A DNA stretch of 64,000 nucleotides. It comes from Candidatus Daviesbacteria bacterium (GTDB lineage: Bacteria; Patescibacteriota; Microgenomatia; Daviesbacterales; UBA10151). Positions 28,706 to 30,739 of the stretch are shown here, piece by piece. The notes beneath the pieces are model-generated. The model was not told where the DNA came from. It did no database searches and saw only the letters and a list, made by a program, of their open reading frames with translations. The stretch covers positions 52 to 64,051 of the forward strand of contig JAQTPP010000003.1 in the NCBI GenBank assembly GCA_028712705.1, given 5' to 3'. Position 1 is the first letter of the stretch, and every line of letters begins with the position of its first letter. The position numbers and the translations under genes were made by a program.

Positions 28706-30739
28706 TTATATATCTAAGGTTGCTAACTTCGCATGGGTTTGGATGAAGCGCTTTCGGGGAGGGACTTCATCACCCATGAGCATGGTAAAGACCTCGTCTG
28801 TTGCAGAAACATCTTCAATGGTCACTTGTTTTAAGATCCTGTTTTCCGGATTCATGGTGGTTTCCCAAAGCTGATCCGGGTTCATTTCTCCTAAACCTTT
28901 GTAACGTTGGATGATGATACCTGGTGATTTTGTCATTCTGGCTTGTCCAGAATCCTCCACATCAGGTTCTGGAGTCGCTTCGCTCCCCAGAATGACATCA
29001 TCCTTCGTAGCTTTATTACCTTTTAGTTGTTTTAGGATTTTATCCCTTTCTTCATCGGAATAGGCATAATGGATCTCTTTGCCTTTTTGAACTTTATAAA
29101 GCGGAGGTTGGGCAATATACATATAGCCTTTATTGATGATTTCAGGCAAATATCTAAAGAAAAATGTTAAAAGCAGGGTTCTGATGTGTTCCCCGTCAAC
29201 GTCCGCATCTGTCATGATAATAATCCTGTGGTACCTGGTTTTATTGTAATCAACCGTATCCCCAATTCCTGTTCCCAGGGCAATCACCAAAGCTTTAATT
29301 TCTTCAAACTCCAGGACTTTATCCAATCTCGCCCTTTCTGTGTTGAGGATTTTACCTCTTAAGGGCAAAATGGCCTGGAATTTTCTATCCCGTCCTTGTT
29401 TGGCGCTGCCTCCGGCACTGTCTCCTTCCACAATATATAATTCCGACTGCGATGCATCTCTGTTTTGACAATCAGCCAATTTTCCGGGTAAAGTCATTCC
29501 TTCCAGGGCGCCTTTCCTGATTACCGCATCTTTGGCAGCTCTGGCTGCAGCTCTGGCCCTGGCAGCAAGCAGGACTTTTTCCATGATCTTTCTGGCATCC
29601 TGAGGGTTTTCTTCAAAAAACATATCCAGGCCATCTTTGACCACCTGAGCCACAATCGGTTGCGCTTCCGCATTACCCAATTTTTCTTTGGTTTGCGATT
29701 CAAATTGGATTTTATCGGAATCCATTTTGATGGAAATAACTGCTGTTAAACCTTCTTTGATATCCTCTCCGGTTAAGTTTTCATCTTTTTCTTTTAAAGC
29801 CTCAATTTTGCGGGCATAGTCGTTAATGGCCCGGGTTAGGGCAATGCGGAATCCTGTTAGGTGAGAACCGCCTTCTATGGTGGGTACAACATTTGCAAAA
29901 CTCTCTACGTTTTCATTAAAACCGTCGTTGTATTGGATCGCAGCCTCAACATCTATTCCCTCCACCACTTTGTGGATCAAGATCGGCTCGGGGTGAATCA
30001 AGGCCTTATTCCTGTTCAGGTGCTTAATTAAAGTGGCCAGTCCTGATTGGAAATAAAAGTGGCGTTCCTGTCCGGTTCTTTCATCGTAAAGATGGAAAAA
30101 GATTCCGGCTACCAAATATGCTACTTGTTTAAGTTGTTTTTCTAACTTTTCAAAATCCGGAGTAATAGTGGAAAAAATTGTTTTATCAGCCAAAAAAGTT
30201 GTTTTAGTGCCGTTTTTTACTTGCCAAACAAAATTTGTTTTAAAAGGTAAGCTGGTATCCTTGGCAGTAAGAGCAACTTTGCTTTTGGCTTTGCCTTTTG
30301 AATATTCCTGGAAATACTCTTTGCCCTCCCGTCTGACTTCTGCCCTTAAATAATCTGATAAGGCATTGACTGCGGAAACCCCGACACCGTGTAATCCTGT
30401 AGATACTTTATACCCGCCGTCGCCGAATTTACCGCCTGCGTGAAGAGTAGTCATGATAACCTCAAGCGCAGATACCCCGACTTTTGGGTGAATTTCCACC
30501 GGGATTCCCCGACCGTCATCAGCAACCGTAACATAATTTTCTTCATGCAAAACAGTCCAGATATTTTTAGCATAGCCTGCCAAAGCTTCATCAATAGAAT
30601 TATCAACTACCTCTTTAACAAGGTGATGAAGACCGCGAAGATCAGTTGAACCAATATACATCCCCGGACGTTTGCGGACCGGTTCTAAGCCTTCTAAGAC
30701 TTGAATTTGTTCTGCTGAATACTTGCTGGATGCTGACAT
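28706..30739 (-). CDS. gyrB: DNA gyrase subunit B
   Basis: HATPase, Toprim (EGDSAGGS) and PLRGKILN motifs. C-terminal [19 protein letters not shown]. Carries the in-frame MITE insertion. Confidence 0.95.
28931..28997. repeat. MITE-like element, family 1 copy C, inserted in-frame in gyrB (encodes [23 protein letters not shown])
   Basis: 67 bp tgtcattctggcttgtccagaatc...ccccagaatgaca. About 85% identical to reverse-complemented copy B. Sits in the variable loop before [10 protein letters not shown]. Confidence 0.75.

Follow-up and report, generated by a model that had tools for sequence, protein, structure and literature searches.

The closest described counterparts of the repeat considered here are the CGTC-tagged repetitive extragenic palindromic (REP) sequences, which comprise the families CGTC-1 to CGTC-4 (Di Nocera, De Gregorio & Rocco 2013, BMC Genomics 14:522, PMC3733652). 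As described there, each repeat carries an unpaired terminal tetranucleotide CGTC, of which TGTC (common) and CCTC are variants, followed by a stem of 8-9 bp that is A-T complementary in its first two positions, a loop of 4-5 nt, longer and structured in some families, and a short unpaired tail with the consensus CCA. The repeats occur mainly as head-to-head dimers with the tags outside, heterodimers are frequent, and the spacers measure 1-100 bp (PMC3733652). Here we analyse a palindromic element of 67 nt within the gyrB gene of a Candidatus Daviesbacteria genome, an ultra-small groundwater bacterium of the Candidate Phyla Radiation (CPR)/Patescibacteria (Microgenomates). The gene lies on a stretch of 64,000 nt (contig JAQTPP010000003.1), the whole of which is hereafter called the window. 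From our analyses we conclude, with a probability of about 0.75, that the 67-nt segment is a non-autonomous head-to-head heterodimer of tagged REPs, which landed in a loop of gyrB, is old, and would be exchanged as a cassette and spread by an enzyme supplied in trans.

The CGTC-tagged REPs apparently have no dedicated transposase, and they are reported from five phyla, the CPR/Patescibacteria not being among those given in that account (PMC3733652). The REPIN/RAYT system consists of GTAG-tagged REP doublets that are mobilised by REP-associated tyrosine transposases (RAYTs), which are Y1 transposases of the IS200/IS605 type. Intragenic copies encode 20-30 aa, notably in UvrA/B/C, PolA, DnaE/DnaE2, RecB and tRNA synthetases; the passage on intragenic REPs makes no mention of gyrB, and the word 'gyrase' gives nothing in the supplementary files (PMC3733652). 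The peptides of Additional file 3 (VIPAKAGI...IPAFAGMT; VIPAKAGISLPFDEQSGERSGKKREIPAFAGMT) begin with VI (GTC ATT) and end with MT (ATG AC.). In Rickettsia conorii, CGTC-1 equals the Rickettsia palindromic element (RPE) RPE-6 and CGTC-4 equals RPE-4, and in Neisseria CGTC-1 equals dRS3 (PMC3733652).

The element in the window and in gyrB

Three copies of the element, A, B and C, were located in the window (Table 1), all at the positions that an original prediction, made from the letters of the window, had given for them. Each ends in the exact 11-nt termini TGTCATTCTGG/CCAGAATGACA; terminal inverted repeats of 11-13 bp had been proposed, and these are real, although their perfect part measures 11 nt. 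Exact matches to the 11-mer TGTCATTCTGG number six in the window and mark both ends of copies A, B and C. If one mismatch is tolerated, there are 8 matches against 1.17 expected from shuffles, a count reached in 0 of 100 shuffles. The 24-nt block TGTCATTCTGGCTTGTCCAGAATC is unchanged in copies A, B and C. Copy C and the reverse complement of copy B, for which agreement over about 60 of 67 nt had been claimed, are identical at 62 positions of their 67 and 70 nt, and interior-shuffled controls averaged 49 with a maximum of 56. Folding, suggested earlier as a check, gave a strong hairpin structure for each window copy (z-scores -3.9 to -4.9 versus dinucleotide shuffles).

The plan of the element is modular and reads TGTC-ATTCTGG-X-CCAGAAT-C, a spacer of 0-35 nt, and G-ATTCTGG-Y-CCAGAAT-GACA. 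The two stem-loops are thus inverted to each other with the TGTC tags outermost, which is a head-to-head arrangement. The window copies are heterodimers composed of one short-loop and one long-loop module each, as are most CPR copies.

The GyrB protein of the window is 100% identical to one from a Candidatus Daviesbacteria metagenome-assembled genome. Copy C lies in the reading frame of gyrB, as had been predicted; the open reading frame (ORF) is intact and the frame is kept. It encodes a hydrophilic peptide of 22-23 aa, VILG...ARMT, which begins with VI, ends with MT and stops 6 residues ahead of a conserved GyrB segment, in a variable loop. Because two of the three reading frames across the element termini are open, copy C would be read through as this peptide.

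The GyrB loop among relatives

Among the 120 closest GyrB proteins (79-100% identity), the loop is short in 70, intermediate in 6 and long in 44. Five proteins have the element peptide intact, all of them with identical codon position and orientation: that of the window, P0009, P0019, P0063 and, with an internal duplication, P0003. These carriers represent at least 5 Daviesbacteria species. Remains of the element are found in further proteins: its right half is all that is left in the loops of P0099 and P0100, P0024 holds a decayed element, as P0004-P0007 probably do too, and the stem base alone, GTCATT|ATGACA, remains in P0045. Different repeat families occupy the site in other relatives. Read at the DNA level, the loop of P0015 (L204) holds a dimer of TGTC type that belongs to the ATTGCGAG family and, after it, AATGTAAAATCC, which is left over from the old right end; that of P0014 (L205) is a mosaic of decayed modules.

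The closest relative, P0002 (genome JAQUSJ01; 97.8% core amino-acid identity and ~95% nucleotide identity), has an entirely different gyrB loop. Identity between the window and this genome stops and restarts at sharp breakpoints around the loop, which in P0002 is filled by another palindromic insert with TCGTCAG four times and 13-nt inverted ends. Sharp breakpoints likewise separate the element carrier P0009 from its nearest relative P0090 (94% amino-acid and ~91% nucleotide identity), which has a short loop. To judge mainly from these two sister pairs, the distribution of the element appears to be discordant with the gyrB tree. Because the carriers have their non-repeat flanks (K-S/T-P-G) and a single orientation in common, we infer that the history is told most economically by a single old insertion, after which homologous recombination exchanged or removed the loop cassette. 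The many short-looped GyrBs and the sister pairs that differ by the whole loop bear out the earlier view of the segment as an acquired insertion. It is old and, being present at one site in several species, neither recent nor private to the window genome.

The modules of the gyrB copies are conserved beyond their amino acids. Where residues are the same, codons are identical in 87 of 96 cases within the modules, compared with 177 of 322 for the gyrB sequence on either side, itself highly conserved. Columns with identical codons in all four species compared number 12 of 15 in the modules and 11 of 32 in the flanks (Fisher p=0.005). The spacer and the adjoining KSPGIII codons vary freely among carriers. 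The original prediction had held that relatives with the same residues, conserved as amino acids and not as nucleotides, would speak against an insertion. Several relatives do share the residues, but the conservation is at the nucleotide level and extends to synonymous sites, so the insertion is not refuted by them.

Alignment of the C-terminal 314 residues of GyrB with solved structures matched residues 8-205 to E. coli GyrB 357-555 and residues 243-314 to 732-804. The gap between query residues 205 and 243 implies that the element loop corresponds to E. coli GyrB residues 556-731, the position of the ~170-aa insertion domain of Gram-negative GyrB; the loop is thus a proven permissive site. 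In a metagenome scan, which returned mostly distant lineages, the same loop ranged from very short to ~50 extra low-complexity, E/K-rich residues, and no palindromic signature was found in the loop inserts of these lineages. An AlphaFold model of GyrB built on a 35-sequence alignment was uninformative (mean pLDDT 54; the insert, residues 575-605, below 50, as many other regions).

The TGTCATT of the empty Daviesbacteria gyrB site was considered as an insertion target and rejected, as more distant empty loops are without TGTCATT; it may itself be a relic. Many Daviesbacteria gyrB genes also contain an intein (PF14890; proteins of 844-1111 aa), namely P0010, P0019, P0041, P0083, P0102, P0108, P0111, P0114, P0118 and P0120, and that of P0019 holds both an intein and an intact REP dimer.

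Turnover of intergenic copies

Over 40 kb, the window and JAQUSJ01 are syntenic at ~95% identity, and most alignment breaks fall at small palindromic repeats of several families. Copy B occupies the orthologous site in JAQUSJ01, with flanks 99-100% identical and terminal modules identical, and with a strongly different long loop and spacer. The site of copy A, from which JAQUSJ01 is missing the element, lies in a locally rearranged stretch. Interiors and cassettes thus turn over much faster than the DNA around them, and the tagged stems persist.

Module statistics and dispersal

One genome per species was searched for the pattern TGTCATTCTGG-N35-62-CCAGAATGACA. At least 114 loci match, some of them in-frame inside ORFs, with about 1 expected by chance according to our estimate. 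The family is scattered through many CPR genomes and several other phyla, including isolates of Adhaeribacter and Chryseobacterium. In-frame copies elsewhere in the CPR lie in ArgRS, PolA, UvrA, GuaA, a class-I aminoacyl-tRNA synthetase, PPDK/PEP synthase and a P-type ATPase, as well as in an O-antigen ligase and glycosyltransferases.

Module statistics were derived from 222 modules of 111 distinct elements, which range in size from 57 to 83 nt. The local partner stem is present in 134 of the 222, and the base 3' of the CCAGAAT stem is C in 133 of those 134. The loop X/Y has 5 nt (CTTGT/ACAAG) in 50 modules and is the 6-nt CGAAAG in 30, which amounts to an 8-bp stem with a GAAA loop; a structured 14-nt loop, such as GGAGCGAAGCGACT, occurs in 19. 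The commonest tail trinucleotide is CCA (26), followed by CGA, CTA and CTG. The stem begins with AT; its length is 7 bp in the copies of the window, and 30 modules from elsewhere have one of 8 bp (ATTCTGGC/GCCAGAAT). The variant TGTC-ATTCTGGC-GAAA-GCCAGAAT-CCA was found in a Magasanikiibacteriota metagenome-assembled genome (MAG) and in a MAG labelled Rickettsiaceae (L003, L058), and the ATTCTGG stem is also shared with the latter (L058). The TGTC/GACA tag stands at both ends of all three window copies; in the 111 elements it does so by design, as the search pattern demanded outside tags, and the share of head-to-head among arrangements is therefore set by the pattern.

No integrase homologue is present in the 114 element loci and no match was obtained in the IMG/VR viral contigs that would indicate a phage vector. 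No RAYT flanked by repeats was seen in the examined loci, no search having been aimed at Y1 transposases of whole genomes.

The TGTCATTCTGG termini also head high-copy repeats in the gut MAG Eubacteriales fecal_MAG_231 (L001, L009, L011, L039 and others), which belong to a longer conserved unit with fixed flanks. In Adhaeribacter soli MA2 (L024, L031, L062, L074, L075, L079), among the Bacteroidota isolates, the modules read TGTC-ATTCT-GGA-AGAAT-C. These occurrences suggest either that the host range is very wide or that tag and AT-start stem arose by convergence.

Other palindromic inserts and neighbouring features

Palindromic inserts of other families lie in-frame in five more genes of the window: gyrA, atpG, atpD, a holB-like gene (DNA polymerase III delta'-like) and an RluA-like pseudouridine synthase gene. 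The sister families in the window likewise begin with TGTC. The gyrA insert, which has TCGTCAG/CTGACGA repeats, splits the PF00521 match after residue 210 and belongs to the family that fills the gyrB loop of P0002; the gyrA site of that sister genome is occupied by a different, unrelated sequence of ~100 nt. In the N-terminal barrel of atpD, the Pfam match covers 91 residues for a profile of 69 positions. Both members of the CCTGCCCGCC...GGCGGGCAGG family, in the RluA-like and holB-like genes, coincide with alignment breaks versus the 95%-identical genome.

The window contains two Xer-like tyrosine recombinase genes 4 kb apart. Copies A and B, which are inverted to each other, bracket the first of them, and the position of copy B beside this gene is kept in JAQUSJ01. 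As the mobilising enzyme this recombinase was rejected: it is a conserved core recombinase of the CPR, 60-65% identical across CPR phyla, and has no homologue in the 114 other element loci. Between the DUF5656 gene and the first Xer-like gene, ~970 nt hold no ORF of at least 70 aa. Large parts of this interval are 87-95% conserved with JAQUSJ01, and an undescribed RNA might be encoded in it, although Rfam gave no match at E<=1. Remnants of repeats from other families are present there too.

An 80-nt palindromic element of the CAGTCGTCAG family, exactly between the T2SSF and T2SSE genes, is present only in JAQUSJ01 (L200, reverse complement 16175-16253), and the window has an apparently empty site for it; this is the clearest presence/absence polymorphism that we saw. 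The murC-gyrB interval contains a Bac_transf sugar-transferase ORF, and the 95%-identical genome has nothing alignable there and a different ORF of 218 aa. Five ORF starts in what looks like a type IV pilin-like gene cluster, adjoining the T2SSE/T2SSF genes, share a diverged 57-nt repeat that encodes a GFTL(V/I)ELLVV N-terminal segment.

Table 1. Positions in the window of the element copies, of related palindromic inserts and of neighbouring features.
Feature	Position	Strand	Remarks
Copy A	9367..9434	+	68-nt dimer, intergenic; missing at the orthologous site in 95%-identical JAQUSJ01
Copy B	11189..11258	-	70-nt dimer, intergenic; orientation opposite to that of A and C; the Xer-like recombinase ORF ends 50 nt upstream
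Copy C	28931..28997	-	67-nt head-to-head dimer of TGTC-tagged REP stem-loops within gyrB
Short-loop module, copy C	28931..28954	+	TGTC tag, ATTCTGG stem, CTTGT loop, CCAGAAT stem and C tail; 24 nt, invariant in the three copies
Spacer between modules, copy C	28955..28965	+	varies among orthologous gyrB copies
Long-loop module, copy C	28966..28997	+	GTTCTGG, structured loop AGTCGCTTCGCTCC, CCAGAAT, then GACA (tag on the opposite strand)
gyrB host gene	28706..30739	-	677 aa
Right-end remnant of a related element	10035..10062	+	hairpin TCCCGC/GCGGGA, then TCAGAATGACA; complete in JAQUSJ01, starting TGTCATCCTGA
Sister-family member in atpG (59348-60286)	59923..60026	+	104-nt dimer TGTC-ATTGCGAG...CTCGCAAT-GACA, in-frame in ATP synthase gamma
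Half element, ATTGCGAG family	60496..60540	+	ending ...CCTCGCAATGACA; in atpD (60264-61790), N-terminal beta-barrel region
gyrA insert	20861..20945		in ORF 19006-21588 (-)
Insert in RluA-like gene	925..960		in ORF 510-1343
Insert in holB-like gene	32015..32050		in ORF 31420-32139
First Xer-like gene	10128..11138		
Second Xer-like gene	15000..16022		
Interval without ORF of 70 aa or more	9153..10127		repeat remnants, e.g. 9215-9262
murC-gyrB interval	27845..28705		sugar-transferase ORF 27910-28659
Pilin-like cluster	36210..39773		
Apparently empty site, CAGTCGTCAG family	34936..34938		

Discussion

On the reading that we favour, one copy of the tagged REP dimer inserted into the length-variable loop of GyrB, where it would be read through as a peptide. 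The loop cassette would since have been exchanged or lost via homologous recombination within gyrB. Gene conversion or template switching with genomic copies, or selection on the hairpins, would keep the modules intact, and the family would spread by hairpin- or single-strand-dependent insertion with an enzyme acting in trans (HUH/RAYT-like or other), not by a DDE transposase.

Several points weigh against this reading. Membership in the CGTC/TGTC-tagged class is judged from the described layout, any placement in one of the four families or in a fifth is tentative, and the stem ATTCTGG has 7 bp in the window versus the published 8-9 bp. The neighbour-joining gyrB tree behind the discordance argument is poorly resolved, and copy A, the only clean intergenic presence/absence case for this family, has rearranged surroundings. 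Some non-CPR labels among the matches may belong to mis-binned MAGs; the ORFs of L005, labelled Gammaproteobacteria, cluster with ORFs of CPR loci. The mobilising enzyme was not found in the window or in loci of 8-22 kb, whole genomes being outside the scan. Translation of the gyrB insert is a prediction, based on the unbroken frame and on the fact that decay in relatives keeps the frame.

Conservation of the modules at synonymous sites across four species, next to saturated neighbouring codons and spacer, could also mean that host selection keeps the gyrB stem-loops as a cis element, either as an mRNA hairpin for stability or translation or as a protein-bound DNA site, with the peptide as a by-product. 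The strong predicted structure agrees with this, and E. coli REP and bacterial interspersed mosaic element (BIME) sequences have been reported to bind DNA gyrase. Yet many relatives have lost, deleted or decayed the element with gyrB still intact, and 70 of 120 are without an insert. Family-wide homogenisation fits equally well, as intergenic copies show equal module conservation and variable interiors. In Rfam, neither the whole window at gathering thresholds nor the region 9100-11400 at E<=1 gave a match. We therefore regard such a cis element as unlikely.

A related proposal follows from the two gyrase genes together. The inserts of gyrB and gyrA are both in-frame, and in each gene it is precisely at the repeat that the window departs from the 95%-identical sister genome. 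The stem-loops might be maintained at the nucleotide level in both genes as recombination anchors for swaps of short loop cassettes between alleles and between repeat families, and might also be gyrase-bound cis sites. We consider this unlikely. If the former were true, it would provide CPR bacteria with fast remodelling of the surface loops of essential proteins, and if the latter were true, supercoiling would be coupled to gyrase gene expression.

The original prediction had called the element MITE-like, that is, similar to a transposable element of the miniature inverted-repeat type (MITE), a deletion derivative of a DDE insertion sequence that is moved via its 11-bp terminal inverted repeats by a transposase elsewhere in the genome. 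Perfect terminal inverted repeats that start with TG and end with CA, the small size of 57-83 nt and the dispersal would suit such an element. Against it, the direct repeats counted beside 112 copies for k=2-8 are as many as shuffling predicts (9 observed versus 7.95 for k=2; 1 versus 0.47 for k=4), so that no target-site duplication is seen, and no conserved target or flanking motif exists across these copies. All-against-all clustering of the ORFs near the elements (114 loci of 8 kb) revealed no recurrent transposase, and no parent insertion sequence with matching terminal inverted repeats was present in the examined loci, complete genomes being outside the scan. Moreover, the 'terminal inverted repeats' are the tags and stems belonging to two local hairpins, both of them pairing with an adjacent partner, and the layout agrees with that of REP dimers (PMC3733652). 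A classical MITE is thus very unlikely, and the anatomy is that of a tagged REP dimer.

A reading of the segment as ancestral coding sequence of gyrB, with intergenic copies that are similar by chance or come from that gene, is hardly tenable. Several relatives do have a nearly identical peptide at the same position; the same element, however, occurs at more than 100 unrelated loci in many phyla, is missing in the 70 short-looped GyrBs, in more distant lineages and in the closest relative, and is conserved at the nucleotide and not the amino-acid level. An assembly or binning artefact, a repeat collapsed into gyrB, is conceivable for a window that comes from a MAG, where repeats can give chimeric joins, and is practically dismissed by the intact reading frame, the same insertion in independent NCBI, JGI and ENA assemblies (L195-L198), flanks collinear with relatives and the presence of the family in the Adhaeribacter and Chryseobacterium isolate genomes.

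The tagged REP dimers described here extend the under-studied CGTC/TGTC-tagged REPs to the CPR; no prior description of such repeats in CPR/Patescibacteria was found in the literature by sequence, peptides, MITEs or REPs. Coding sequences are invaded on a Rickettsia-like scale, with six housekeeping genes affected in a 64-kb window, among them both gyrase genes and two ATP synthase subunits. For marker genes like gyrB, on which phylogeny and binning draw, these inserts make alignments longer than they should be and break them up. They also give rise to spurious 'lineage-specific insertions' in CPR proteins and to many small hypothetical ORFs. The cassette differences between genomes of 91-95% identity, together with the conservation of synonymous sites, offer a tractable natural system for the movement and persistence of transposase-less repeats. 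What merits further work is how pervasively housekeeping genes of the CPR are invaded and how synonymous sites are conserved.

Comparison with known systems

With the CGTC-tagged REPs, the element agrees in the tag, the AT start of the stem, the loop lengths, the C-initial or CCA tail, the head-to-head heterodimers and the variable spacer, and it is also alike in having in-frame copies of 20-30 aa in replication and repair genes and tRNA synthetases. The variant TGTC-ATTCTGGC-GAAA-GCCAGAAT-CCA (L003, L058) has the same format as CGTC-ATTCCCGC-GAAA-GCGGGAAT-CC of CGTC-1, a layout that we derived from the published peptide VIPAKAGI, with two compensatory changes in the stem.

The RPEs are likewise palindromic, inserted in-frame in housekeeping genes and read through as an extra peptide, the translation being a predicted one in our case. 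RPE-type peptides (SFLRKQES...DSRFRGND and VIPAKAGI) parallel the VILG...ARMT of the gyrB insert. The original prediction regarded the present element as analogous to the Rickettsia elements and probably unrelated; this does not hold for the structural class, because the TGTC tag is a signature of the superfamily that includes RPE-6 (CGTC-1) and RPE-4 (CGTC-4), both of which, following PMC3733652, are of the same structural class as this element. RPE-1, the classic element of 100-150 bp, is a different, longer family. The host lineage of the RPEs differs from the CPR, and the likeness is one of structural class.

REPIN/RAYT elements and the present element both consist of two inverted REP hairpins able to form one long hairpin, are without a target-site duplication and keep conserved modules around a variable spacer; their tag is GTAG, in contrast to TGTC here. 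In Neisseria, the segments between dRS3 repeats form mosaic arrays, which resemble the swapping of interiors and cassettes seen here. The dRS3 stem is ATTCCC/GGGAAT versus ATTCTGG in our element, and the Neisseria repeats form intergenic arrays, whereas those described here include cassettes in coding loops. The element is therefore probably a new family, in a new host lineage, of the known tagged-REP class, rather than a new kind of element.

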